The translations under genes and the position numbers were made by a program. DNA of 64,000 bases, from positions 3,552,001-3,616,000 of the forward strand of contig OZ244170.1 in NCBI GenBank assembly GCA_965216565.1, written 5' to 3'. Under the pieces are notes generated by a model. It ran no database searches and was not told where the DNA came from. It worked only from the letters and a program-made list of their open reading frames with translations. Shown in pieces: positions 17,344 through 64,000 of the stretch; position 1 is the first letter of the stretch, and each line of letters begins with the position of its first letter. The stretch is from Bythopirellula sp. Lineage in GTDB: Bacteria; Planctomycetota; Planctomycetia; Pirellulales; Lacipirellulaceae.

Positions 17344-18138
17344 ATGAAGCAGTACCTACAACTTCTCGATCATGTTCTTAAAAGCGGCGTAGCAAAATCG
17401 GACCGCACAGGTACCGGTACGCGCAGTGTATTTGGCTACCAAATGCGATTTGACCTCGGCCAAGGCTTTCCTTTGCTGACCACCAAAAAACTCCACTTGC
17501 GATCGATCATTCACGAATTGTTGTGGTTCTTGCGTGGTGAGACGAATGTTCAATATCTGAAAGAGCAGAAGGTTTCGATCTGGGACGAATGGGCAGACGA
17601 GCAAGGCGAATTGGGGCCCGTCTACGGTAAGCAATGGCGAAGTTGGAGTACGCCAGATGGCCGGTCGATTGATCAGATTTCTGAGGTGGTCGAAATGATT
17701 CGCACGAATCCCGATTCTCGGCGACTCATCGTCAGCGCGTGGAACGTTGGAGACGTACCGCAGATGGCGTTGCCGCCCTGCCACCTGCTTTTTCAGTTCT
17801 ATGTTGCGGAGGGCCGTCTTTCTTGCCAGCTTTATCAGCGCAGTGCCGACATCTTTCTAGGGGTTCCCTTCAACATCGCTTCTTACGCTCTGCTGACCAT
17901 GATGATGGCACAGGTAACTGGCCTCGAGCCAGGTGACTTTGTGCATACCCTCGGCGATGCCCATTTGTACGACAATCATTTGGAGCAAGCGCAGCTACAA
18001 CTTTCGCGAGAACCAGGGGCCTTGCCTACGATGCATCTCAATCAAGAAGTGGGCTCTCTATTCGATTTCACATTCGAAGACTTTCAGCTAAAAGATTACA
18101 ATCCCCAGCCCCATATCTCGGCACCAGTCGCTGTATAA
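17344..18138 (+). CDS. thyA: Thymidylate synthase
   Basis: [34 protein letters not shown]. Confidence 0.98.
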
Positions 18139-50866: not shown

Positions 50867-51400
50867 ATGCCCGCAATCCCCGTGTTGACCCATGATCTGC
50901 GAACATTGCATGGGGCCAACGTGCGACGGCTCATGGCCCGACTGAATCTGACACTGCAAGACGTAGTCGAGGCCTCGGATCTCGACGAAAGGACCGTGCG
51001 CAGCATTCTGCAAGGCGTCACACGACCCCATGCCCGTACGCTCCACAAACTAGCCACAGGCCTGGGAGTTGAGGCAGACGAGCTATTTCAGGATCTATCG
51101 CACACCCATCGAGCTTCCTTCGACCGGGCTACCAATCCCGCTGTTTCGGCGGCAATCGATGCCGATCCCCAGCGGTTCGCAGACTGGACCCCCGCCGAGT
51201 TTGAAGAACTATTCAGCCGCATGGCGGTGGGAGGCGAACTGACCGAAGAGGGCGTCCTCACCTCGGCCGAGGCGATTAATTCGCGTCGTCAATTGATGAG
51301 CCAGATAGCTGTGATTCTAGAAAGCGGCGAAGCCGATCACCTGCGCGAGTTTGTCGCCATGCTCTATCATCGCGTGACAGATGTCAGCCATCTCACGTAG
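50867..51400 (+). CDS. XRE/Cro-C1 HTH transcriptional regulator
   Basis: NVRRLM..LNLTLQDVVEASDLDERTVRSILQG..RPHARTLHKLATGLGV. Confidence 0.85.
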   Translation: MPAIPVLTHDLRTLHGANVRRLMARLNLTLQDVVEASDLDERTVRSILQGVTRPHARTLHKLATGLGVEADELFQDLSHTHRASFDRATNPAVSAAIDADPQRFADWTPAEFEELFSRMAVGGELTEEGVLTSAEAINSRRQLMSQIAVILESGEADHLREFVAMLYHRVTDVSHLT

Positions 51401-52040
51401 AAACGCGCACTACTTTGGCGATGGGTAACTTGTCGATCCGCGCTGCCTGCTCGATCGATTCCAACCGATAGATTGCGCCATCGGAACCGACGAAGCGATC
51501 GTCCGACTCCACAGGAAACTGCTCTCCCATGACAATTGTAAACCGCTCGATAGCGGTGGGAGCATTGGAGGTGTCGCTCACCGTAGTTTCATCCGGCTGA
51601 ATTCGCACTGGCATCGCAGTATAGACATCGTCCCAACTAGTGATCTCAGGCCCCTGGCCCAAGTCTTGCCAAACGGCCCGCTGTACGTCTACAGAATCGT
51701 CGCAGCCCAAGGCAACGCGCAGTTCCCGCGTTTCGCACTTCAATCGGCCTAGCAGCGAATGCTGGTCCACTGCCAACACAGTCCACTGAGAATCGTCGGC
51801 ATCGATGATGATGTCCCCCAGTTCCAACCGTGTTCCAGCATCCGGCAATTCCAAATACCACACGGCATCCGATTGAACACTCGTACCACCACTCGGCTCA
51901 GCTTCACTCGAAATCTGCTCTCGACGCAGCGAGGTAAGACCGGCCACGAGCGATCCTGACTCGCGCTTACGCAGGGACACGGTTTCCAAACCATCTACCG
52001 AAGTTACAAAATCTTGGCTAGGATCAAACTCAATGCTCAT
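51393..52040 (-). CDS. Putative head-closure protein (two tandem gpFII/gp16-like beta domains)
   Basis: Last gene of the operon; two similar halves (LGDIII.AD.SQWTVLAV / DDRFV.SDG.IYRLESI); call is positional. Confidence 0.5.
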   Translation of the reverse strand: MSIEFDPSQDFVTSVDGLETVSLRKRESGSLVAGLTSLRREQISSEAEPSGGTSVQSDAVWYLELPDAGTRLELGDIIIDADDSQWTVLAVDQHSLLGRLKCETRELRVALGCDDSVDVQRAVWQDLGQGPEITSWDDVYTAMPVRIQPDETTVSDTSNAPTAIERFTIVMGEQFPVESDDRFVGSDGAIYRLESIEQAARIDKLPIAKVVRVST

Positions 52041-52255
52041 CCGGTAGTTCCTTCCGACCTAATTTCAAAAGGATCGCAATCAAGCAACTTGCGATCGCAC
52101 CAATCGACGGTGCGCTGTAGCGACTCGACATAGTCAACCCAGGCAACACTTTGGCCATCAATCGAATAAGTAGGTTTGGGACTGGCTCGTAGCTCTTCGA
52201 GCTGCGTCAGCGTCTGAGCTCGAATTGTGGAAATCTGCTCGGTTTCGCTCGACAT
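52037..52255 (-). CDS. Putative gpW-like head-completion/adaptor protein
   Basis: 72 aa helix-hairpin-helix with PTYSIDGQSV, resembling the gpW-type YSI.G hairpin. Confidence 0.55.
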   Translation of the reverse strand: MSSETEQISTIRAQTLTQLEELRASPKPTYSIDGQSVAWVDYVESLQRTVDWCDRKLLDCDPFEIRSEGTTG

Positions 52256-52257
52256 GG

Positions 52258-52656
52258 TTAGATACACCTCAATTGGAAACGGAAAATGGTTTTCTGCCCT
52301 GTAACGGGCGTTAGTTCATAACGAACTTGATAGACCTTGCCGGCGTCAGGAAATGCTTCGTTCGTAGAGACATAGATTTCGTGCCGGAAGTTGTACCCAT
52401 CGCTATCTACCGTCCAGGTGTCGTCGGTTTGCAAGCTGTCGAACACCACGTCACTAACCGTCAACGAGACCGCATCGTGACCCGTGACGGCACTCAAGCC
52501 AGAGGGGTCGTTGGTCGTTAGTTCGTAGATGCTGTATTCGATTGACGAAACAGATGCCTGGTTCAAATACTGCCCCGACGCGTTGACGACCCGAGCCATG
52601 AGAACGGCAGAACCATTTCGAAACACTTTTGATTTGAAATCAGCCGCTATCGGCAT
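52258..52656 (-). CDS. Hypothetical beta-rich virion-associated protein
   Basis: 132 aa ORF tightly packed in the operon. Confidence 0.6.
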   Translation of the reverse strand: MPIAADFKSKVFRNGSAVLMARVVNASGQYLNQASVSSIEYSIYELTTNDPSGLSAVTGHDAVSLTVSDVVFDSLQTDDTWTVDSDGYNFRHEIYVSTNEAFPDAGKVYQVRYELTPVTGQKTIFRFQLRCI

Positions 52657-52727
52657 TTACTCGCTCCTTCCAATTGAAGTGGTCAATCACAACAGGCCCC
52701 TGGCAAAGGCAACTCGCCGCTAACACG

Positions 52728-53492
52728 TCACGCCGCAAACGCTTCGGCCCCAACATTTTCGATTCCTGAGAGATTGACCTCCGCACGCTCGGCTCCATCT
52801 GTTTGCAAGCCCTCCTGCTCGACTGTGTAGGGCCCCGAGAAACGGCAAGGCTGAATGACGGCCTGGCCTCCACGCGGCATGAGCACCCGAGGGTGTTCGG
52901 TCGCGATTGTCCCTCCGGAACTCGTCGCAACTGGTCCCCAACCGGGATGGTTCAACCGGCGTACGCAGTTGTGGTAACAGAGTAAGTTGCTTAGATCGGA
53001 GATCATTAGCGGAGAAATCCCGGCTGCCAACGCCTGGATGTCACCGTCTTGCAGAGCGATATCCAATAACGCAACTTCCGCAGCATCGACTGCGGTGCTT
53101 GTGGCAAGGTTCCCCAAGCTGAAATCATTGACGCCATCAAAGAGTCTTTCGTGATTCACTTCGGTTTGGTTCCCACCGTCCAAATAGACACGCCTGGCAG
53201 TCGCCGATTCAAAGACTCCCGTCACTTGATGCCATTGATTCGCAGACATCGGCGCAGTCGACCGTGCCGCACTGGTACTGGAAACTCTAGATATCGCAAC
53301 CACTTGATTCGCATTATGTCCCTCGTAGTTCAATCCGTGATACGATCCCGTCGTCGTGTTGCTGACACGCATCAAGGTCATCAACGTAGAACTGCTTGGA
53401 ACGCGGAACCAACCCGTCAAGGTAAACGGATAGTCCGTCACAGATAGCGAACCAAGGTCTACTAGATTGCTCGATCCTATTGCCAAAGCCAT
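52728..53492 (-). CDS. LamG/concanavalin-A-like domain protein
   Basis: PFTLTGWF, QWHQVTGVF, RVYLDG, FSLG, AEVALLD.AL. Confidence 0.75.
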   Translation of the reverse strand: MALAIGSSNLVDLGSLSVTDYPFTLTGWFRVPSSSTLMTLMRVSNTTTGSYHGLNYEGHNANQVVAISRVSSTSAARSTAPMSANQWHQVTGVFESATARRVYLDGGNQTEVNHERLFDGVNDFSLGNLATSTAVDAAEVALLDIALQDGDIQALAAGISPLMISDLSNLLCYHNCVRRLNHPGWGPVATSSGGTIATEHPRVLMPRGGQAVIQPCRFSGPYTVEQEGLQTDGAERAEVNLSGIENVGAEAFAA

Positions 53493-53498
53493 CGTTGG

Positions 53499-53984
53499 TT
53501 ATGCCTCACGCAATTCTAAGGAAATGAGTTCCACGTCTCCCACCAACGTGTCAGCCACATCGGCCGCCTGGCGATTCACTAGCACCTGCAGAACATCGCC
53601 TGCGGCTAGCCCCGTGACCGCGATGGAATCGCTCACGGCAACAACGATGTCTCCGCTAGTTGCAGGGGCTGCGGTGGTTACTTGGCTGCTTCCACTCGCC
53701 GTTGGAGGAGAATCGAGGTTATCTCCAGCGGCAAAATGCACGAGTTCAACCTCGAATTTGCAGTTGCCCGTTACAGCCGAACTGGTTGTCCAAGTCAAAA
53801 GGGCTTCGATCTCACCGCCCGCAAAGTGGCTTGGGACAACCGCTTGAAATTGAGCTTGCTCTTCCGTGGAGTCATCAAAGTCCAGCACCACAAAGTCGCC
53901 TCGCATGTCGACCGTGGCAAAGTCGGCACTTGGCGGTCGATTGGACAATGCGTCGGCAGTCATCAAAGAATCACCGCTTGCCAT
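53499..53984 (-). CDS. Hypothetical beta-sandwich virion protein
   Basis: GGGAG before ATG 53984; 161 aa immediately after the capsid gene. Confidence 0.6.
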   Translation of the reverse strand: MASGDSLMTADALSNRPPSADFATVDMRGDFVVLDFDDSTEEQAQFQAVVPSHFAGGEIEALLTWTTSSAVTGNCKFEVELVHFAAGDNLDSPPTASGSSQVTTAAPATSGDIVVAVSDSIAVTGLAAGDVLQVLVNRQAADVADTLVGDVELISLELREA

Positions 53985-54083
53985 TTGCTCTACACTCCCT
54001 TCGATTCGTTTGTTGGCATGGAGAAATATTTGTGAATGGCCAGCCACCAGTGCATTGCTGACTGGCCATTCACTCTGGAAGTG

Positions 54084-55244
54084 CTAGCCAGTGCACTTGA
54101 CGACATACCGAGGGTTGAGAACCGCTGGAGCCCCACGTTCGCTCGCCTTGAAGCGAAGCACGATATCATTATTGAAATCGGCTTCACTATTGATGGGTGC
54201 TTGCGTCACCGTAATTGGCCAATTCTCCATGTAGGCGAACGCCTTCGAGAAGTCGCCGATAAACCAGTACTTCTTCGCATCGGCGGCAGCAACGCCCGAG
54301 TTCACGAGCCGCCGGTAAGCAAGGCGACTTTGCTCCACTCGATAGTTGCCCAAGGGATTGGTAGCGGTCGTCGTGGTCGGCAGGCCCGATCCCACGTATG
54401 CAATCTCCGTGGCGTTGAACACGCGATGAGCGGCATGGCGATAGGCTGGCATCACCAACACGCTTGTCCCGCTAACGAGAACGGGTTCGCCGGTCGCTGG
54501 ATCGCTCATTTCGGCAAACAACTGCTCAGCAGCATCGACATTGGTCCAGTCTACTAACTCGTTCGACGCCAGCAGATTCGCCCAACTGCCAGCGGCAGAG
54601 AACGTATTGAAGTTTGCCCCGTTCTGGTTGAAAGAGTTGGTAATACCCATCACGGTATCGAGTAACCGCTTCTCTTTGTTGAGCCCCAACACCTCGCCTA
54701 CCTCAGCGGCACGCGACAAGATTAAGTTAGTCCTGTCGAAGAAAATCGCTTCTTTCGTCACCGGGACAATAAAACCATGCTTGGCAGTTGACGGCGTTTC
54801 GATGTAGTCTTCGCCGAATCCGAGATGAGGATAGGGCATTCCGTTCCCTACTTCGTCGATTCGATCCTCAATGCGATTGACTCCCGGGATCTTTTCTCCA
54901 TCGAATCGTGTCGGAATCGTTTGAACAAGTTTTGATGCAACGAAGGCTTCCTGGGAATAGGAGTCCAAGATTTTCGAATAGATCACCTGGCCTGCGATGT
55001 TTAGAAATGCGGTGACATCGATTCCGTCGGACGACTCCGTCAAGCTTACTGAACCGCTGCTCCGGGGATCGAGCATCCGCACCCAATGACGGCCTTCGGG
55101 GACGAGTGCCTCCGCCAAATCGCGGATGCTAAAATCTTCTGGTTTCAGATGCCCTTCACTGAGCGATTCGGAAAGATGCCGAACCGTGTTTCCGGCTCCG
55201 TCCAGATCGTAACGCCTCTTAAGTTCTCGATAGTTCAAAGTCAC
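54084..55244 (-). CDS. Major capsid protein (HK97 fold predicted)
   Basis: GTG 55244 after AGGAG; 386 aa; KHGFIVPVTKEAIFFD, WFIGDF, ERGAPAVLNPRYVV; follows the protease and decoration genes. Confidence 0.75.
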   Translation of the reverse strand: MTLNYRELKRRYDLDGAGNTVRHLSESLSEGHLKPEDFSIRDLAEALVPEGRHWVRMLDPRSSGSVSLTESSDGIDVTAFLNIAGQVIYSKILDSYSQEAFVASKLVQTIPTRFDGEKIPGVNRIEDRIDEVGNGMPYPHLGFGEDYIETPSTAKHGFIVPVTKEAIFFDRTNLILSRAAEVGEVLGLNKEKRLLDTVMGITNSFNQNGANFNTFSAAGSWANLLASNELVDWTNVDAAEQLFAEMSDPATGEPVLVSGTSVLVMPAYRHAAHRVFNATEIAYVGSGLPTTTTATNPLGNYRVEQSRLAYRRLVNSGVAAADAKKYWFIGDFSKAFAYMENWPITVTQAPINSEADFNNDIVLRFKASERGAPAVLNPRYVVKCTG

Positions 55245-55306
55245 AGATTCTTCTCCTGTTTTGCGGGTAGTCTGATTCTGGCTCTCTGCCTCATCACTCT
55301 TCGAAA

Positions 55307-55780
55307 TTAGGCGGCCGCCTGCGGACCTCCGCGGACCACTGTGCTGACGACATCGACAAACACACTCGTGCTGGCAGTTGGAACCCGCTTCACGCACCGT
55401 CCAATGGCGAGGTTCGCAGAAGCGACCCCTTCTACAATCTGGTCTTCCAGCTCCGTTCCCAAAGCTTCTTCGGCACCGCCGATGAAGTCGCCAATCTCAA
55501 ATGTTGACGAGCTGCACTCGAACTCAAACACGCCACTCGTGGCGACTCGAATGGAACCCGATGATTCCGCTGGTGAGGCCTGCATCGCGACGCCAAGAAA
55601 CTGGTCGTGCAATAATTCTTGATTTGCTGCCGGTGTTCCCTGGTCAGTCAGACCCGAGGCCGGCTTTGCCGTCCCACTATCGAGTACGACCAGATCGCCA
55701 ATTTCGATTCCCGCTGAACTCGAAACCGGCATGAGGATCGGATTCGTCTCTCCGTAACGCCAACGCATAGAACTTGCCAT
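55307..55780 (-). CDS. Capsid decoration/cement protein (DUF2190-like)
   Basis: IEIGDLV, FLGVAM, IRVATSGVFEF, FEIGD; sits between the protease and capsid genes. Confidence 0.7.
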   Translation of the reverse strand: MASSMRWRYGETNPILMPVSSSAGIEIGDLVVLDSGTAKPASGLTDQGTPAANQELLHDQFLGVAMQASPAESSGSIRVATSGVFEFECSSSTFEIGDFIGGAEEALGTELEDQIVEGVASANLAIGRCVKRVPTASTSVFVDVVSTVVRGGPQAAA

Positions 55781-55829
55781 GAATTTCTTCTCCTGAATTT
55801 AGGGTGTGCAAATAGACAATCGGCTTTGT

Positions 55830-56792
55830 TTAGTTGAGGGAGCCAACACGCTGAATAGCCTTGGCAAACGCTGAAGCACCTTCCGGCTCATTGGAAGGCT
55901 GAGATTGCAGAGCAATTTGATCGACGGAGCGAGGAATCCTGGGCGAGTTTAGTTTCGAGGATGTACCAGCCGTCTCAAGAAGTTCAACCCGCTCCAACAC
56001 TAGCTGTTCGAGTTGCGAATCGTCTTCGATTGCGAGCAACATCTCATAGAAAGCCCGGCTTACCGTTTGAGGCCCCGCAGCACTCCTGTTGCCATTACCT
56101 TCCCGGTGCTTTGGTAAGCGAAGCCCATGCTCACAGAGCAACTCCAGCGTCTTCCTCTGTCGGGCGAGCCCCGCACATCGAACTTCCGACTCTTGCAACT
56201 TTTCACGCAGGCTCTCAGCACTTTGACGACTGTGCTCCTCGAGTAAATCTGGGCGACAATTCTGCAGATGCTCCAAAGTAAGCTCATTCCACTTGAGCCC
56301 TTCTTGATCGTACTCGTACAAACCCAGCGTCGCGGCAGGATCGGCGACCAAGTCGACACTTTGAACATGCGTAATCTCTTCCACCACAGTCGATTGCCCA
56401 TCTCGCGTGACACGTGCGAGTACGTTGTGAGAGACTCCCACATTCCGAGGATTGTGCTCAGCATCCCAAACCAGTTGCTCCGCCAAAGGATGTTTGGGAT
56501 TGAAATGCAAGTCTCCAAACAGCCCTTCGCTTTCGCGAAACTGAACCTCCCGAATCACGCCCAGCCGATCCTGGTAGTCGCGTGGCGATAAGGGCCCGCT
56601 CTTGGGATGATTCACGTTGACTTTTGCTCCTTCATAAAGCGATTGAGCCTTCCGCAGTGCATTTGGTTCATACACCCGGCCATTGCGCGAGGTGAGTCCG
56701 ATAAGCTTCACTCCCTTGAGCACGCCGCGTTTCGAGTCGACACGAAGCGTTGTTCCTTGCGAGTCGACAAATTCTTGTAGAGCTTCGGCCAT
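55830..56792 (-). CDS. Prohead protease with C-terminal scaffold region
   Basis: SRNGRVY, NHP, VGVSH, SVDLVADPA resemble T4 gp21 (S77)-type motifs; helical/coiled C-terminus. Confidence 0.75.
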   Translation of the reverse strand: MAEALQEFVDSQGTTLRVDSKRGVLKGVKLIGLTSRNGRVYEPNALRKAQSLYEGAKVNVNHPKSGPLSPRDYQDRLGVIREVQFRESEGLFGDLHFNPKHPLAEQLVWDAEHNPRNVGVSHNVLARVTRDGQSTVVEEITHVQSVDLVADPAATLGLYEYDQEGLKWNELTLEHLQNCRPDLLEEHSRQSAESLREKLQESEVRCAGLARQRKTLELLCEHGLRLPKHREGNGNRSAAGPQTVSRAFYEMLLAIEDDSQLEQLVLERVELLETAGTSSKLNSPRIPRSVDQIALQSQPSNEPEGASAFAKAIQRVGSLN

Positions 56793-56824
56793 TGTCTGTC
56801 AGTCCTCATTCATCCTTAGTGAAT

Positions 56825-56869
56825 AAAAAAAGCCTCGGACAAAAACCTCAAGGGTTCTCGTCCGAGGCT
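56825..56869 (-). terminator. Strong intrinsic terminator inside the phage-like operon
   Basis: Minus RNA AGCCUCGGAC-GAGAACC-CUUGA-GGUUUUU-GUCCGAGGCU-UUUUUU; 17-bp stem whose G-U pairs form only on this strand. Confidence 0.85.
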
Positions 56870-56943
56870 CGATGGGATACGCCTGCCGCTCAATCAGCAC
56901 ACGCTCTTTTCGATACCTGTTTGCCTGGGGTCGCTTACGCCGC

Positions 56944-57123
56944 TTACTTCACCATCCGATCTACGTTGACCCGTGTGTACTGAATGTGTCCGTCTTGTAC
57001 GTTCACCGTCACACTTGCGGTACCAAAGAAGCCACGACCACTGACGCTTTCGATGAGCCTGTCAAATTCCTGACGGGCTTGGGTGCTTCGATCAGTCGAA
57101 TTCAAAGAGTTTTGTTTGCTCAT
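56944..57123 (-). CDS. Small DUF2292/YezD-like protein
   Basis: 59 aa; GFFGTASVTVNVQDGHIQ.TR pattern (helix, then G..V...QDG beta-hairpin). Confidence 0.6.
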   Translation of the reverse strand: MSKQNSLNSTDRSTQARQEFDRLIESVSGRGFFGTASVTVNVQDGHIQYTRVNVDRMVK

Positions 57124-57168
57124 GATGGGTCTCACTTTAGCAAAATGCGAAGGTCATTTCAGCAACTA

Positions 57169-58572
57169 TTATTGGCCACTTTGGTTGGCCGATTCGTCAC
57201 GATGCATGAGGATGTTCTTTTGCTCCTGGTCATAGTCGAGCCCCAACCGCAGGCTCCATGTTTGAGGTGAAATTAGTCCATTGTCGAACGCCACCTTTTC
57301 GACCTGGCAGTCTCTTACCTGGTCGCGCACCCGTAGCGACGGAGGTGTGATCTGAAGTTCGATCAATTTTCGGGTGTCGCGGTGTAGGCGTCCTTGGGCG
57401 ACCGCATTTTCGATTACATGCCACATCACGCGGCGATCGTCTTCAATGACACTGGCCTGAAGTCTTTCAAACATTTTTACCGCAGGACCCTCTGCTACGA
57501 GTGTCGAGGCATAGTTTGAATTCGAGGCGTCGGAAGTAAACATATACTCTGGCATCACCAGCCTGGCGGCCACGGCACGCAGCTCTGCCTGTAGCACGGT
57601 TACGAAATTACTGGCGTTGATCCCCGCAGCAGGAAAGTCGTACTCGGTGCCGTCAGGGGCATCGAGAATCGTGCCCGGTGAATACTGCGAAAGCTGACGT
57701 CGCCGGCCACTTGCCGGGTCAAGACCACTCGCTTCGCTATTACCGCTGACAAACTGTTCGACACCCGTGCGAGAAGCGCCTCGATGCTTGCGAATTAACG
57801 CAATTGCCGACTGAATTTCTGAAACAATGCTCATGTTTCGCAGCAGTTTTTCTATCCGACGCAGATTCTTGCTCACCGGGTAATACAGGGGCAAACCTCG
57901 TTTCACGTTTCGATCCACGTTTGCCTTTCGATGCTGAACCTCCGTGGCAGGCACCACCTCACCGTCAACAAAATAGGACAAGACCGATTCCACATCATTT
58001 GCCTCTGTATGAATCCCAAAACTAGCCTCCGGACTCTGTAGGAGTTCCCGCGGTGTGACTACTTGATCTGGCTCAACAAATCGAACACGAGTAATACCTG
58101 CGGAATCAACAAAGAATCGAAGAAACAGCTCTCCGTCGCGATCCATACGACGCATCATCTCCTGTTGCCTTGATTGCCATGAGTTCTCTTCCATAAACTC
58201 CTCGAGCAGTTTTTGCACATCCATTTCCAAATTGGTCGGAGCATTAGCACCTTTCCGAGCTGACGCCCGATAATGATGACCGACCCCGACGACATAGCTC
58301 GTCCGGTTTTCAATGCCGTTAATTGCAAACTCATTGGTTGCTACCAAGCGTCGACTCTGTTGGCGGATCTCTGCCAGTTGCTCAGTATTCCCATATGGCA
58401 CGCTGCGGGCTGGGACGCTGCCCTGTTCGCTGGACACAACGTTCCACCAAACGCCATCGTCGTGCACATAGGCTTCAGAGGGATCGACCAGTTGACTCCA
58501 CAACGCATCGCAAGCTTCGGTCAGGCGTTGTTCTAATTGCGCTTGGCTATTGCCGTTTGCCATCGTTGTCAT
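57169..58572 (-). CDS. Portal protein (lambda-like family)
   Basis: 467 aa after TerL; RDGELFL, RFVEPDQV, RGLP, DASNSNYAS. Confidence 0.85.
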   Translation of the reverse strand: MTTMANGNSQAQLEQRLTEACDALWSQLVDPSEAYVHDDGVWWNVVSSEQGSVPARSVPYGNTEQLAEIRQQSRRLVATNEFAINGIENRTSYVVGVGHHYRASARKGANAPTNLEMDVQKLLEEFMEENSWQSRQQEMMRRMDRDGELFLRFFVDSAGITRVRFVEPDQVVTPRELLQSPEASFGIHTEANDVESVLSYFVDGEVVPATEVQHRKANVDRNVKRGLPLYYPVSKNLRRIEKLLRNMSIVSEIQSAIALIRKHRGASRTGVEQFVSGNSEASGLDPASGRRRQLSQYSPGTILDAPDGTEYDFPAAGINASNFVTVLQAELRAVAARLVMPEYMFTSDASNSNYASTLVAEGPAVKMFERLQASVIEDDRRVMWHVIENAVAQGRLHRDTRKLIELQITPPSLRVRDQVRDCQVEKVAFDNGLISPQTWSLRLGLDYDQEQKNILMHRDESANQSGQ

Positions 58573-58652
58573 CGTTCTTGCTCCCGATTTGTTTAACGTG
58601 TTGAAATGGATTCATGGATACTAGTTGACTGTTGTGTCATCCTCGATACGAA

Positions 58653-60269
58653 CTATCCGACTGCCAATCGGTCGCCCAGACCATCGTCGGGAATGTTCTG
58701 GTTCACACTACCAATCAGCCGCACTGCCATCTCGAGGGCGTCCGGACCATCGTCGTGAGCGCCCAGCGGAAAGTCGCGCAGTTGGTCTACAAGTAGCGTG
58801 GTTGAGACGGAGCCTTGCACAAAACGCAAACGCCGCTGCGAAAGCAATGCCTCCAATCGGCGTATTCGAGATTGCTTATTCAGAGTATTGTGAATCGAAC
58901 AGACTTGTAGCGAGCGGAGCCCGCGTGTGTTGCACTCCCGACGAAACTCGTCGGCTAGCAGTTCTTGAAACTGATTGGCTTCTACGCCAAAGGTATTAAC
59001 CCGATGCCGCTCGCAGAGCGTCAACCCATCGGCGACCATCTGCGAGATATGCCGTTTCGCCAAATCGGCTTCGACGTACATGACTCCGCGATCGTCCATG
59101 CCTAGGACAACAAAAGCAGAGTAGTCGCCCTGTCGAGACTGCACGCCTTTGCTGGGATCCAAAGCAATTACTTTCCGCGGCAACTGTTCCGGCCACGCTT
59201 GGAACCACACGTGCTCGCCAAAGTACTCATCCGGCCATTCGCAACGTTCGGGATCGATCGGTGAACTTTGCTTTTCTCTCTCAAATGCACTGCGGCCTTC
59301 TTCCACACACATTTTCATCAGCGTGTATAGATCCTCTTCCTCAGGCCATAAGAGTTCCGCACCTTCATCCATTGCCTTTCTGTTCTTGACATAGAAAAAC
59401 CAAGCATCGCGGCGGGCAGAGTGGTTGCTGAGATCGCAATATATCGTTTCCCATCGCTTCCACAGTGCGTCGTTCGTGGGCCATTTGAGAATTGCCTTGA
59501 ACTTCTTCGAACGCCACCCTGGATTGCGATCGAACTGCATCGCCAGCGCATCGCGGTGGAGGGCTGTTGCTAGGTTGAGAACGTTCGTGTGCTTGGTCCC
59601 CGCCTTGAGTAGGGTTCCATGAAACCAGCGCGTCGAGCTTTCTCGGAGCGTGGCCGATGCCATGTGGTCATCGTTTTGCAAATCATCGCAGACGATCAGC
59701 GAGGGGCGAGACTCTCTGATTCGTCTGCCTCGCAATCGCTGCCCAGTTCCAAAACCTTCGATCACAACTCCATTTGGAAGAATCATAGAACCACGTCGCC
59801 AGCGGGCCCCGCGTCCTGTTGCCTGCGGAAAGTCGCGCGCCAGGAGCGGATTGCCCTCTAGCTCGGCTTTGATGTTCTCCAGATGAGTTTGTGCCTGGTC
59901 CTTGGTATCGGAGACTAGCCAGATGTAAGGCTCCCACGCATCTAGTGCCGCCCGGAGGATGTAGCACAGACTTCCAATGGTCGACTTGGCCCCGCCTCGC
60001 GGGCCGATGACATTGATTTTCGTGCCGCGCTGGTTGTGCATATCGTCCAGCTGCTGTCCTAGCCAGCAGTGCATAACCGAAGGCTGCCGGTGGAAGTGCC
60101 GCGGCAAGTAGCGACGGCCCCACGATAGTGTGTCGAGCTGACTACTACGTTGCTTGCACCGGATACGTCGGCCAATGCCCTGGAACAACGCACGCGACAA
60201 TCGGCTGACGTGGCTATCTACCTGGCACGAGTCGGAGTTGGGGTCGATTCGCCGCCTGTGGTCACTCAT
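58653..60269 (-). CDS. Terminase large subunit
   Basis: GPRGGAKST Walker A, LIVCDD Walker B, IALDPS..GDYSA, VEANQFQ, HDDGPDALE; ATG 60269 overlaps the TerS stop. Confidence 0.92.
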   Translation of the reverse strand: MSDHRRRIDPNSDSCQVDSHVSRLSRALFQGIGRRIRCKQRSSQLDTLSWGRRYLPRHFHRQPSVMHCWLGQQLDDMHNQRGTKINVIGPRGGAKSTIGSLCYILRAALDAWEPYIWLVSDTKDQAQTHLENIKAELEGNPLLARDFPQATGRGARWRRGSMILPNGVVIEGFGTGQRLRGRRIRESRPSLIVCDDLQNDDHMASATLRESSTRWFHGTLLKAGTKHTNVLNLATALHRDALAMQFDRNPGWRSKKFKAILKWPTNDALWKRWETIYCDLSNHSARRDAWFFYVKNRKAMDEGAELLWPEEEDLYTLMKMCVEEGRSAFEREKQSSPIDPERCEWPDEYFGEHVWFQAWPEQLPRKVIALDPSKGVQSRQGDYSAFVVLGMDDRGVMYVEADLAKRHISQMVADGLTLCERHRVNTFGVEANQFQELLADEFRRECNTRGLRSLQVCSIHNTLNKQSRIRRLEALLSQRRLRFVQGSVSTTLLVDQLRDFPLGAHDDGPDALEMAVRLIGSVNQNIPDDGLGDRLAVG

Positions 60270-60732
60270 CTTGCGGTTCCTCATGAGTCTCGTCGGGTTC
60301 TGCTTCCGCCATCTGGGCCATTTCAGCAAGTTTCATTAGTACGCGATCACGATCTTCCTCGCAGTTGACGCTAGTGAAAATCACTTCGATCAGCTCTTTC
60401 AAATATTCCTGCAGATCCTTGGTGGTCACAGGCTTGCTAGAATTCCGGTTTCGACGCCGTTTTGCTTTTTGCTCCAACCACCAGGTGGCTGCGCGCCAAT
60501 GCTTTTCATCCTCGGCCGCCTTGTGAACCGCCTTCATACGATGAAGTTCCGCCATCCCTTCGCTGCGTAATAACTCTTGGGCGAACTCTGAGTCGTCCTC
60601 CATCTGTTTTTGAAGTTGAACGATGGTCGCACGCATAGCCTGTGCGGCGGACGCCCGTTCGCAACCCATCTGCACCATGTGACAGATCGCGTGTTTTTGT
60701 TCTGTGGAAAGAGGGGGCGTTGATTCGGGCAT
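60262..60732 (-). CDS. Terminase small subunit-like protein
   Basis: N-terminal HTH-like region, WRAATWWLE motif, directly upstream of TerL. Confidence 0.7.
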   Translation of the reverse strand: MPESTPPLSTEQKHAICHMVQMGCERASAAQAMRATIVQLQKQMEDDSEFAQELLRSEGMAELHRMKAVHKAAEDEKHWRAATWWLEQKAKRRRNRNSSKPVTTKDLQEYLKELIEVIFTSVNCEEDRDRVLMKLAEMAQMAEAEPDETHEEPQDE

Positions 60733-60790
60733 ACACGAGGCGATTGGGGCGAGTCAATCCGTTAAGGCTTGTTCATTTGATTCGTTGCGG

Positions 60791-61942
60791 CTAGTCCCCG
60801 ACATATTCAAACGACACCACAGCCCGGCCGGCGGAACTTCGATAGTTGGCAAACCGTTGCGCATTGGACCGGCCCGAGCCAGTTTTCTTTACGCTAACCG
60901 CTTTCCATTGTGTAGAACGTTTGCAATGGCGAATGAGCGATGGGTGACTGCTGGTGACGTTGATCCGCAATCCCTCTGCGCGATGCAGCGACGCCACGGC
61001 AGCCACCACCCGCATGCCGATGCCCATGCCTTGAAAATCTGGCAGCGTCACTATTCGCGTGAATCGCCTGTGACCTTTCTTCGCAATCACAGGAAGCGTG
61101 GCACAAAACGCCACTGGCTCGCCCTCCCAGGTGGCCAGGTAGCTGCGCGCTCCGATGGCAAGAGAACCGCTCAGATAGTGATGCTTCGCAAACAGTTTCC
61201 AAGCAGCCAATTTCGAGCGGTGGATTTCCAATTGAATTGGGGGTCGCCGAAGACGCCTCCGGTGCAGTTGACGCGTGGCCATATCCAAGACCCAATCCGC
61301 CTCCAGCCACTCCGCCACGTCGTAGTGGCAGGTGACCGCTACGAAGCGGCGCGGGATATTCCTCTTGCGAACTGCCTTGGAGATGGCCGTCGAGCAGGCC
61401 TTGGCCACATTGCGATCAACCACACTCGTGAACTCATCGAAAACGACTAGGGGTCTAGAGTCTAGAGACGAGAGCCCAGAGCCACTCTGTCCGCGAGTCT
61501 CTTCTGGCTCTCGACTCTCGTCTCTAGACTCTCGACTACCCAATAACGCCTTGGCCAGATTGCAACGAAACTGTTCGCCACAACTTAGCACCTGGTAAGG
61601 TTTGATCCAGGAAGGCGGCGAACTGAATCCCACTGCAGTGAACAACTCGACAACTTGCTTCACTGGCAAATCCTCGAAGCAGTCGAGCACGGATCGTTCT
61701 GCTGGCCAGCTCTCGGTGCTATAGAGTTCTTCTCCGTACAGCTCATTGGCAATGGTACTTTTTCCGCTTCCCGAGGGGCCCACGATCAGACCGATGTCCC
61801 ACGATTCCTGACGACTGGGTGTCTCCACCGAGAACTTCTCGGAAACCCTCTCCTCTAGCGGCACATCGAACATGCCTGCCACCTGCTGCACTCGAAACGA
61901 ATCATAGATCGGGCAACTCACTACAACGTCAACACTCGACAT
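60791..61942 (-). CDS. ABC-type ATPase fused to a Mom-like GNAT acetyltransferase
   Basis: GPSGSGKS, LSCGEQFR, VVFDEF, TCH; FAKHHYL, RIVTLPDFQGMGIG. Confidence 0.85.
   Translation of the reverse strand: MSSVDVVVSCPIYDSFRVQQVAGMFDVPLEERVSEKFSVETPSRQESWDIGLIVGPSGSGKSTIANELYGEELYSTESWPAERSVLDCFEDLPVKQVVELFTAVGFSSPPSWIKPYQVLSCGEQFRCNLAKALLGSRESRDESREPEETRGQSGSGLSSLDSRPLVVFDEFTSVVDRNVAKACSTAISKAVRKRNIPRRFVAVTCHYDVAEWLEADWVLDMATRQLHRRRLRRPPIQLEIHRSKLAAWKLFAKHHYLSGSLAIGARSYLATWEGEPVAFCATLPVIAKKGHRRFTRIVTLPDFQGMGIGMRVVAAVASLHRAEGLRINVTSSHPSLIRHCKRSTQWKAVSVKKTGSGRSNAQRFANYRSSAGRAVVSFEYVGD
61453..61536. repeat. 84-bp palindromic element inserted in frame in the ABC-GNAT gene
   Basis: Arms 61453-61484 and 61505-61536 are 29/32 complementary and built of GAGTCTA/GAGACGA/GAGTCGA heptamers. 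Confidence 0.85.
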
Positions 61943-62478
61943 CGACGCCCCTCCTCTCGCATACGCTCGTAGATTTCGCGCTGTTCCTCTTCGTTGTCGC
62001 ACTGCACAACGACTTGAAATAACTCGGGAATTTGCAATTCTGCTTCGGCCAGCGAATCTTCTCCGCCATTGGCATGTGCTCCCGTCTGCAATTGATCCAG
62101 CATTTCGGCGACATGCGGACTATCGAAATCGCATAGCCCCAGCAAGTCGTCTACCTGGCCCATGTTTGTTTCAGCCAACGCCGCCAGGGGATCGTGCGTT
62201 AACAGAATCTTCAGGGCTTCCTCTTCGTTCACGTCGAGCACCAACACCGGCACCTTGGCATCAGGTGTGGTTTCGGCGCGGAGATGCCCATCAATTAATT
62301 CCAATCGGCCGTCCTCCAATTCTCTGGCCAGCAGTGCATCGGCATAGCCAATCTCCGCAAGCACGCCGCATAAGGCATCGCGTTGTGCGGGAGGATGGCT
62401 ACGCCAATTCCTGGGATTAGGCACCAAGTCGCTGGCCCGAACGCGACGCAGCTCTTTTATGCGATCCTGTATTTGCAT
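61921..62478 (-). CDS. ParB/Srx N-terminal domain protein
   Basis: LVPNPRNWRSH, IGY, LIDGHLR, VPVLVLD; C-terminal FQVVVQC..EEEQ. Confidence 0.88.
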   Translation of the reverse strand: MQIQDRIKELRRVRASDLVPNPRNWRSHPPAQRDALCGVLAEIGYADALLARELEDGRLELIDGHLRAETTPDAKVPVLVLDVNEEEALKILLTHDPLAALAETNMGQVDDLLGLCDFDSPHVAEMLDQLQTGAHANGGEDSLAEAELQIPELFQVVVQCDNEEEQREIYERMREEGRRCRVLTL

Positions 62479-62505
62479 CTAATGACTTTCTCTGCAATCA
62501 GTCGC

Positions 62506-62805
62506 TTAATGCTGTTTAAGCAACTGCCTGACCAAGTCGCGGACCTCTTTGATTTCGCTGCGCAGTTCCGTCCGCATGCGTTGGTTGCCTATCTCGATGG
62601 CTGCCAATCGGGCTTGAACTTCGCCGATTTCCCGAGTGGAAACGTAGTCTCTCGCATTCCTGGTAGCGAAGTCTTCCTCGGGTTCCGACGGCGACGCCAC
62701 CGTGGTGGCCACGGCACCCAGAATTGCCGTAATCAATGTCGCCGCCGCAGGCCAACTTAGCTCTCTGCGATGGGGCTTCGTTTGCGATGGTTCAGTTTGG
62801 TCCAT
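62506..62805 (-). CDS. Small protein with one TM helix and a C-terminal coiled coil
   Basis: WPAAATLITAILGAVATTVA, then a heptad-rich tail. Confidence 0.6.
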   Translation of the reverse strand: MDQTEPSQTKPHRRELSWPAAATLITAILGAVATTVASPSEPEEDFATRNARDYVSTREIGEVQARLAAIEIGNQRMRTELRSEIKEVRDLVRQLLKQH

Positions 62806-62820
62806 ACACCTGGGCCCTTC

Positions 62821-63501
62821 CTATTGAACTTTTCCACCTGCGGTTTCGGAACGTAAGTTAGGCGAGTCACCTGGCCCCAGTGGCTCTTCGCTTGGCCGTA
62901 CACCAGCCGCCATATCGGTACGATTCGCATCGCCAGCAAACGCATTGAGGTATTCCAAAACTTGCACGTAGTTGCCGTACATTCGCATCGAATCGTTGAC
63001 GTAAATAAACGTGCCGCGAAATCGACTTTCCAGGCGCGTCCAATTGCAGATAGCTCGATCAATCGCGCCTAGCAGAATCAGCGCGTTCTGACTGCGGAAG
63101 TTGAGTTGACTGCTGACGGGGATATTGGGATCGCTACCGTCTACCGCCCAGGGCAACGCAATCAAGCCACCAGGAGCGTCCTGAACGTCGTCGCCGCCAA
63201 AGGGCTCGGTCGAACCCAATAGAGTTTGGTTCGAGTCGATCGCACGCTCGATAAGTTCTCCCAGCGGAGTTTTCTCCGGATTGTAGGTCACCCGGCGACG
63301 CATCCGATCGCAGGCTAATAAATGTGAGATGTAGTGCGACTTGGTGGTATTATCGAGACCGCCCCGCACACCGAACTCATCGTTTGAAACCACTTCGCTG
63401 CGAAAATCGAACAGGGGTCCCAACGCGGCCACGATATGTAAGTTGCGAAATTCAGAGATTGCCCGACGAAATTGTTCTTGTCCTGGGTCACCAGCTGGCA
63501 T
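62821..63501 (-). CDS. Hypothetical protein
   Basis: 226 aa; AAAGGAG RBS before ATG 63501. Confidence 0.7.
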   Translation of the reverse strand: MPAGDPGQEQFRRAISEFRNLHIVAALGPLFDFRSEVVSNDEFGVRGGLDNTTKSHYISHLLACDRMRRRVTYNPEKTPLGELIERAIDSNQTLLGSTEPFGGDDVQDAPGGLIALPWAVDGSDPNIPVSSQLNFRSQNALILLGAIDRAICNWTRLESRFRGTFIYVNDSMRMYGNYVQVLEYLNAFAGDANRTDMAAGVRPSEEPLGPGDSPNLRSETAGGKVQ

Positions 63502-63503
63502 GG

Positions 63504-63833
63504 TTAGTTCTCCTTTGTCTGAACTTGAAGTTTGGTGGGAGCAATTTCATTGAACCGCTCTCGTAAATCTCTTCTCAACGCGTCAGCCCAACTTCGCTCG
63601 TCCTGCGACGAACGGTCACTGTCGGCAATCGCATCGAGTCGATCGAGTGCAAGCCTTCCTGCAACCGCATCTTGTAACGGGTCACGTCCCTCATGTCGCG
63701 AAAGTTGTAGAAGTTGTCGAGCCTCATGGTCGTCTCGCTGGATGGGTTGAAATATGGCCGCCGATTCGTCGGCGACCTCCTCTTCTTCCTTAGATGCTGC
63801 GGTTGATTGCTGCGTACTATTCCCCGAGAAAGG
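63504..63833 (-). CDS. Start-less reading frame, probable +1 frameshift extension of the upstream gene
   Basis: Open 63857-63504 (…QRDDHEARQLLQLSRHEGRDPLQDAVAGRLALDRLD…RERFNEIAPTK…); the only ATG/GTG/TTG is a late TTG. Confidence 0.6.
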   Translation of the reverse strand, partial: PFSGNSTQQSTAASKEEEEVADESAAIFQPIQRDDHEARQLLQLSRHEGRDPLQDAVAGRLALDRLDAIADSDRSSQDERSWADALRRDLRERFNEIAPTKLQVQTKEN

Positions 63834-64000
63834 GACGCCGACGACCTCGGGCGTCGTTCAATCGGTTCTTCATTCCGCGTCCCACTAGCCAACCAGCCAC
63901 CGTCCCAACGGCCAGCACTGCCCAGCCTGCGGGACCGCTGAGCCCGAGAGTCGTGGCGATCTTACTGCCAACGTGTTTCCCAACACCGACGCTTCTTGAG
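63817..64000 (-). CDS. 3' end of a gene entering from the right edge (Gly-rich TM, then basic tail)
   Basis: Frame from 63999: …LGLSGPAGWAVLAVGTVAGWLVGRG…RGRRRPFLGE*. Confidence 0.65.
   Translation of the reverse strand, partial: SRSVGVGKHVGSKIATTLGLSGPAGWAVLAVGTVAGWLVGRGMKNRLNDARGRRRPFLGE

Follow-up and report, generated by a model that had tools for sequence, protein, structure and literature searches.

The window (the whole 64,000-nucleotide stretch of Bythopirellula sp. DNA that was analysed) is entered at its right edge by a minus-strand gene for a membrane protease, whose layout from N to C terminus comprises a hydrophobic stretch or signal peptide, a trypsin-like S1 domain (Trypsin_2, PF13365, Pfam E 1.7e-16 for the 363-aa zero-frame protein), a Pro-rich linker, a Gly-rich hydrophobic segment and an Arg-rich patch (Table 1). 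The sequence-only reading that this analysis followed up had placed a transmembrane helix ahead of the basic patch; a hydrophobic segment is indeed present, but its Kyte-Doolittle peak is that of an only moderately hydrophobic stretch, and the membrane helix is probable. The protease gene is the second of a minus-strand run, the first gene of which probably encodes a permuted papain-like peptidase (a weak match, E 0.026 to 3kw0). Upstream of that first gene, just past the window (~17510-17570 of locus L125), a GC-rich inverted repeat followed by a T run was seen by eye; it is absent from the terminator scan, and Rfam gave no match upstream of the window end.

The genes behind the protease gene follow in the order given in Table 1, from the 226-aa protein to the major capsid protein. 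Gene order is the same in eight of the nine regions compared, and the cluster is kept in one copy and, in three genera, at one chromosomal place, with flanking host genes common to all three; here it covers 51393-64000 and runs on to window-coordinate ~65550. In all lineages examined, a phage contig included, the 226-aa gene comes after that of the protease, and its product is 83-87% identical across three genera, exceeding the capsid protein (68-79%); searches for a family, a viral fold and a match in phage collections returned nothing for this protein, the best fold match reaching Z 6.2. In another planctomycete order the protease and 226-aa genes are likewise adjacent, and a 30%-identical capsid gene is located more than 100 kb away or on a separate contig. 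One region (L132, genome G131) is without the 226-aa, ParB-like and ABC+GNAT genes and most of the large terminase, with protease, portal and capsid remaining. The large-terminase ORF of the window, read from a TTG (58653-60329), overlaps that of the small terminase (60262-60732); its N-terminal stretch aligns poorly across relatives, and the true start may be later. Three Pfam tail families were searched for and not found in genome G000 (94% complete). Judged from its gene content, the operon looks like a domesticated phage head module, and a head cluster that is tail-less on the evidence of these three families is a candidate GTA-like or domesticated particle system.

Table 1. Features of the protease locus and its operon, in window coordinates
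Feature	Position	Strand	Basis or remarks
Zero-frame protease gene, 3' end	63817..64000	-	363 aa in total; 5' end at window-coordinate 64908, outside the window
Gly-rich hydrophobic segment (residues ~317-343), probable membrane anchor, then basic residues	63880..63960	-	Kyte-Doolittle peak 1.34
Hairpin upstream of site 1, 5-6 bp, loop CGAGGU (GGAGGU-like)	63838..63857	-	Alignment pairing and covariation; window copy z -0.15 against shuffles
Putative shift site 1, UUU-C (Phe360), zero frame to frame A	63828..63831	-	TTTC 29/31, TTTT 2/31
Zero-frame stop TAG, 4 codons past UUU (relatives 2-17)	63817..63819	-	Sequence and located sites
Frame A (+1), 107 residues past the shift: conserved three-helix domain A, preceded by an acidic linker	63504..63857	-	Open frame and homologues
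Element upstream of site 2: GGAGG 63780-63776 (ends 23 nt before UUU) and 9-bp hairpin 63777-63756	63756..63780	-	Hairpin z -3.8 in the window
Putative shift site 2, UUU-C within frame A, opening frame B	63749..63752	-	In-frame TTT-C kept in 58/59 loci
Candidate frame B (+1 relative to A), 57 codons, basic, entirely within the domain A overlap	63575..63748	-	Stop TGA 63577-63575
226-aa conserved protein without known family	62821..63501	-	Next conserved gene downstream in every lineage examined
Remainder of operon: 99-aa protein with hydrophobic stretch, ParB-like, ABC+GNAT, small and large terminase, portal, head protease, decoration, major capsid, more small genes	51393..62805	-	

The zero frame of the protease gene ends with CCC TTT CTC GGG GAA TAG (63834-63817), and the sequence-only reading had located both the CCC TTT C (63834-63828) and the TAG (63819-63817) correctly. 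It was also right in that a +1 frame, here called frame A, is open for 117 codons from 63857 to a TAA at 63506-63504 and is missing from the ORF list, that a GAGGT lies 9 nt before the CCC, and that frame A lacks a usable start, no ATG, GTG or TTG being found in the window upstream of its conserved part. Its statement that frame A ends 2 nt before the next ATG holds for the window (ATG at 63501), but the gap is not conserved, the commonest values including 2-133 nt; with this variation, and with a varying distance from the second site (see below) to domain A, a fixed downstream stimulator or a coupling to the next ATG was rejected. Contigs from two of four sequencing runs equal the window over all 601 bases compared (63400-64000), although they may be the window's own source, and a run from another study spans the break in two overlapping gap-free contigs, with no single record bridging it (contigs, not raw reads, were compared). 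By this contig comparison, the frame break is not an assembly indel.

Judged from its homologues, frame A is a conserved protein domain and not a chance opening. It was matched in 18 of the 24 other genomes of the genus and in 41 of 120 family genomes (7 of 24 genera), with one match per genome in 40 of the 41, counts over kin such as these being overstated by the non-independence of their rows. A search for longer proteins gave 88 hits, mostly fusions of the protease with domain A and several of them named as Lacipirellulaceae proteins, and a profile search gave 159, many again with the protease motif. Domain A has no Pfam, PHROG or NCBIfam match; its best fold match reached Z 4.8, Atlas matches stayed below 0.9, and its predicted model is three helices at low confidence (pTM 0.28).

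Sixty distinct anchored loci were compared, three duplicate and two unanchored loci of one 24-locus batch having been left out: 32 are split by one and the same +1 offset, a further 21 are fused, and 7, mostly at contig ends, were not classed. The split loci come from at least four genera and several metagenomes, with the same phase and the same motif. In 25 of 31 split loci, a zero-frame ORF with the catalytic GxSG motif of the protease stands at a +1 offset to A (five of the others are cut by the locus end and one has indels), and downstream of the break domain A is 56-77% identical. The alignment of homologues that had been proposed as a check thus bears out the frame break and coding-type conservation downstream, but not the CCC of CCCTTTC, which is not kept. 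Fused homologues had been named as a sign of sequencing error; they do exist at 21 loci, yet they do not indicate an error in the window, because these loci are of other lineages and retain the second site. Two copies carry further damage that could reflect decay or assembly error: L063 (genome G130) has a +1 break without UUU and a stop inside A, and L067 (genome G129) has extra breaks through indels. A quick tree of 45 rows, long branches among them, requires at least three changes between split and fused states and rejects a single clade of split loci (p-AU 0.006), and therefore site 1 would have been either gained more than once or gained early and then lost.

At the split loci, the last zero-frame Phe codon is TTT, followed by C in all but two of the 31 automatically located sites, where it is followed by T; site 1 of the 32nd split locus (L066) was assigned by eye. 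TTT makes up 46% of Phe codons genome-wide, so it is not rare, and TTT followed by C accounts for 11.6% of Phe codons genome-wide and 31% in the neighbouring gene, which gives the background for this site. The preceding codon varies (AGG in 11 of 31, CCC in 9, others in the remainder), which rules out CCC as a component of the slip site, contrary to the earlier proposal that a Pro tRNA re-pairs there; because CCC is not part of the signal, only tRNA-Phe need re-pair. The zero-frame peptides preceding the site are Gly/Arg-rich, with no conserved Trp. Between site 1 and a second UUU-C inside frame A lie linkers of 3-66 codons; 25 of them, 731 codons in all, are without exception stop-free in A, against 11.9 expected open by shuffling, and 24 of the 25 contain a zero-frame stop, a test that is partly circular in that site 1 was searched for within the A-open stretch.

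A GGAGGU-like tract lies ahead of site 1 in 30 of 30 rows, ending 15 nt before the UUU in 24 of them and 12-18 nt before it over the whole set (12 nt in the window and three other rows). This tract is the loop of a 6-bp stem in which 91.7% of 180 cells are paired, with seven two-sided changes and none of 500 shuffles as high; the region contains CGC repeats, and a stem slid by three columns is still 76-78% paired, with a covariation of 0.174 against 0.213, and the window's own hairpin is no more stable than its shuffles. The SD-like tract to which the sequence-only reading had pointed is thus the loop of a conserved hairpin, and its distance from the UUU does not agree with the SD spacing known for +1 shifts, 3 nt. 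Some natural rearrangements are seen among the relatives. Two metagenomic loci (L071 and L072) have two UUU-C sites just three codons apart with one upstream hairpin common to both; in L019 (genome G014) both sites have apparently merged into CCC TTT TC, where one slip could give A and two could give B; and in the metagenomic locus L083 and the protein P0003 a site-1-like motif stands in frame with domain A, so that a shift would truncate the product, an inverted arrangement.

The second site is the more widespread of the two. Inside frame A, upstream of the conserved domain, an in-frame TTT-C is present in nearly all loci with sequence there, whether split or fused (57 by script and L005 by eye, out of 59), L065 being the sole exception. 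Ahead of it, 45 of 52 loci have a GGAGG whose end is 20-26 nt away from the UUU, against 46 of 4944 control TTTC codons (0.9%); the distance is 23 or 26 nt in 42 of the 52, the GGAGG is absent in 7, and L005 is without it. A hairpin often lies between the GGAGG and the site, as it does in the window. The same signal can be read from proteins: in 77 of 78 motif-matched fusion proteins (the 88 longer proteins minus 10 off the motif pattern) the Phe is followed by P, R, Q, H or L, whose sole common possible first base is C, and in distant homologues the Phe is followed by a residue whose codons start with C or U in 99 of 108, compared with a background of 49% (10 fragment or false hits and 4 unanchored and 3 Phe-less proteins were excluded).

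A +1 shift at site 2 would open frame B, which has 55-95 codons and a median net charge of +8, the window's A being acidic. All 51 loci tested keep frame B open, where synonymous redraws would lead one to expect 21.9 (L005, L019, L065, L070 and L091 were left out of the frame-B tests). The modal third-base share of frame A is 0.86 in the B overlap, 0.55 past the B stop and 0.58 in the 226-aa control gene. Further marks of dual coding appear in the 56 non-redundant loci (L063, L067 and two near-duplicates omitted): a Leu codon is CTT in 56 of 56, another position alternates between CTA (29) and TTA (27), silently in both frames, a Phe and a Tyr of B are each kept in all 56, and Val/Leu/Ile exchanges in A leave B unaltered. 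The B stop falls at one position in 38 of 55 and is made by AGG or AGA after a Leu codon, these being 1% and 3%, respectively, of Arg codons in the control gene.

The arrangement at site 2 extends beyond the family. In another planctomycete order, all eight matching genomes of one family have a fused gene with CCN TTT CCC, a +1 frame open for 39-66 codons and a purine-rich tract 21-30 nt upstream that encodes differing residues in each genome. An IMG/VR phage contig, which also carries a virion protein, Sak4, SSB and an exonuclease, has a fused gene with TTT-T, a frame B similar to that of the window and, by eye, an upstream hairpin. Scans of viral sequences with two distant A homologues gave no match, and a DNA-pattern scan gave three contigs, all previously found. 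A natural control is provided by family f19, in which 3 of 3 loci are without Phe in the linker and have a closed +1 frame; because slip site and B constraint are missing together there, the two go together. The single A-to-B site of the fused lineages, the other order and the phage is the wider and probably the older state.

Several other explanations were weighed against serial frameshifting. Site 1 could be real and frame B untranslated, with an antisense ORF, or an element acting at the DNA or RNA level, behind the conservation over A. The antisense shadow of B is open in 52 of 56 loci, B is not rigid (21 of 73 possible A-silent, B-altering changes are seen) and no database protein with B fused in frame was found among five candidates in a weak search; yet of the 15 common changes at the first codon position of A, 12 are silent in B and every one alters the antisense shadow, none of the 7 possible B-stop changes is seen, the constraint stops at the B stop with its rare Arg codons, and site 2 and open B are jointly missing in f19. 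RNA structure in the dual-coded core was rejected, as 19 sequences showed no stable fold there (mean z +0.25), and on balance this reading is improbable. A separate small protein in the split lineages, A or B being translated from an internal start served by the GGAGG tracts, has a lower probability again. The GGAGG does match the anti-SD found in the window's genome, 24 of 31 split loci have some ATG, GTG or TTG in frame A, several of them just ahead of site 2, and 45 of 51 loci have a start codon in B, but the B starts are not enriched (44.0 expected), the positions in A vary, 7 of the 31 (the window among them) have no such codon in A, and such starts would explain neither the invariant UUU-Y and the open linker nor the fusion of A to the protease in 21 loci.

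The matched UUU codons, the stop soon after the first of them and the upstream hairpins would also suit translational bypassing, in which the ribosome hops from the first UUU to the second and lands in A. A hop has no need for an open frame between the sites, whereas that stretch is A-open in every linker, and fused genes without the first site retain the second; with a stop 2-17 codons away from the take-off codon instead of adjacent to it, a bypass of the T4 gene 60 type was ruled out, and bypassing in general is very unlikely. We consider transcriptional slippage or a -2 ribosomal shift, either of which also reaches the +1 frame, yet more remote: only three to five Ts are present, with no conserved homopolymer, and because the codon preceding UUU varies, tRNA-Phe would have no cognate triplet to re-pair with after a -2 shift. 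The least credible account is sequencing error or a decaying prophage gene. To this account belong the 21 of 60 loci and most of the 88 longer hits that are fused, together with the extra breaks of L063 and L067; it is contradicted by 32 loci from at least four genera and metagenomes that share one phase and one motif, by the identity of A downstream of the break and by the indel-free contigs.

We therefore favor, with a probability of about 0.74, the reading that two serial programmed +1 frameshifts decode the protease gene into three putative isoforms, with computed lengths of 363 aa (no tail), 467 aa (via A) and 443 aa (via B). Site 1 taken alone is very likely a real +1 shift, and translation of frame B is likely as well, at a slightly lower confidence. 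The comparison shows a conserved phase, a conserved slip tetramer, open linkers, an upstream G-rich tract with a hairpin, and coding-type selection on both A and B; that ribosomes actually shift at either site we infer from these patterns. The sequence-only reading had proposed a short form and a form about 105 aa longer, and the comparison strongly supports the shift between them (104 aa longer), but there are probably three isoforms, the second UUU-C feeding the dual-coded frame.

Mechanistically, P-site tRNA-Phe would sit on UUU and, in some of the ribosomes, move over to pair with the UUC that overlaps it. At site 1 (63831) the choice would be between the stop four codons on, giving the tail-less protein, and entry to frame A; at site 2 (63752) it would be between the complete acidic three-helix domain A and the overlapping basic frame B. 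Site 1 would be a further layer, one through which both tails become minority products. The stimulator could be an upstream duplex, formed by a hairpin refolding behind the ribosome and/or by pairing of GGAGG with 16S rRNA, and at site 2 the intervening hairpin might bring the GGAGG into range. The spacings of the GGAGG(U) tract (12-18 nt at site 1 and 20-26 nt at site 2) match neither SD rule, namely 3 nt for +1 and 9-14 nt for -1 shifts as given in the available text of PMC5009743. In vitro, artificial hairpins placed upstream raise the level of +1 shifting by 70S ribosomes (PMC6321510), an effect that, in the text available, concerns a CUU-UGA site and RF2-free conditions only, unlike the UUU-C sites here.

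The positive-inside rule is the basis for the topology of the protease helix and the basic residues behind it: with a signal peptide, one membrane helix and these residues, the protease would be periplasmic and its tails cytoplasmic. As to purpose, the likeliest suggestion, though still a tentative and rather doubtful one, is that the shifts fix the stoichiometry of the cytoplasmic tails of a protease that is anchored in the membrane, faces the periplasm and belongs to an envelope-remodelling or particle-release module; tail A would dock on the adjacent 226-aa protein, and tail B would bind nucleic acid or anionic lipid. The fullest version of the proposal, which we place a little below even odds, would hold that two serial +1 shifts, each driven by an upstream hairpin/SD unit of undescribed spacing, yield three isoforms with two tails overlaid in the same DNA, that this is kept in two orders and a phage, and that it sets the subunit ratio of an envelope module in a tail-less capsid system that the host has domesticated and that may represent a new type of GTA or particle.

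To our knowledge, bacteria offer few natural examples of +1 frameshifting at conserved signals. The locus offers two related cassettes, dozens of natural variants, a natural negative control (f19) and natural rearrangements (a merged site and an in-frame site 1), which make it testable whether a 5' refolding hairpin or a long-range SD is a natural driver of +1 shifting on 70S ribosomes. It also suggests that a dual-coded frame can lie beneath an annotated domain and be overlooked even where the gene seems intact; serial sites together with a dual-coded third frame are the features that may surprise specialists. In the literature searched, in which subscription journals were thinly covered and supplements lay outside the scope, no account was found of this gene, of this operon or of serial bacterial +1 shifts; according to the available text, the GeneTack set (PMC3711429) included two Planctomycetes genomes.

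Among known systems, RF2 (prfB) shares the +1 slip in the P site and an upstream SD-like tract, but it shifts at CUU-UGA, with the SD 3 nt upstream and a stop in the A site, whereas the present sites have UUU-C, a sense CNN codon in the A site and a tract 12-26 nt away; the spacings and sense codons rule out a site of the RF2 type. The capsid and tail shifts of the Listeria phages PSA, A118 and A500 (available text of PMC5009743) likewise concern phage-derived genes, a +1 direction and a C-terminal extension, but in these phages the slip takes place on a Pro codon, CCC, of structural genes, and a site of their type was ruled out here, CCC being dispensable and the gene encoding an S1 protease. 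The parallel with phage structural or chaperone genes drawn by the sequence-only reading does not apply, the membrane protease being neither capsid, tail nor chaperone. In the available text of the same source, UUU-Y is described as shift-prone in bacteria, and two systems there use it without resembling the whole arrangement. The Yersinia YopN-TyeA hybrid shares a UUU-Y slip without an adjacent stop and the joining of frames in an envelope-related bacterial system, but it joins two separately initiated genes, and that text describes no second site or dual-coded frame. Influenza PA-X (UCC-UUU-CGU) shifts +1 at UUU-C into an overlapping ORF to give an alternative C terminus of 41-61 aa, which parallels site 2 and frame B; unlike the present locus, it belongs to a eukaryotic virus and has a single site and no evident stimulator.

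The closest known case is the UUUC +1 shift of FseA in ICEMlSymR7A (msi172-msi171), which occurs at 4-13% and has an upstream G-rich region (available text of PMC4755241). Common to both are a bacterial tRNA-Phe shift from UUU to UUC, a conserved upstream G-rich region, an origin in a mobile element and the coexistence of single-ORF and two-ORF homologues. FseA has a Trp-Gly four codons upstream of the UUU (available text of PMC5009743), which is absent before site 1 here. Moreover, FseA has a single site, and its one functional product activates transcription, whereas the protease gene would combine two sites in series with a covarying hairpin on their 5' side and a second product read from a wholly overlapping frame.
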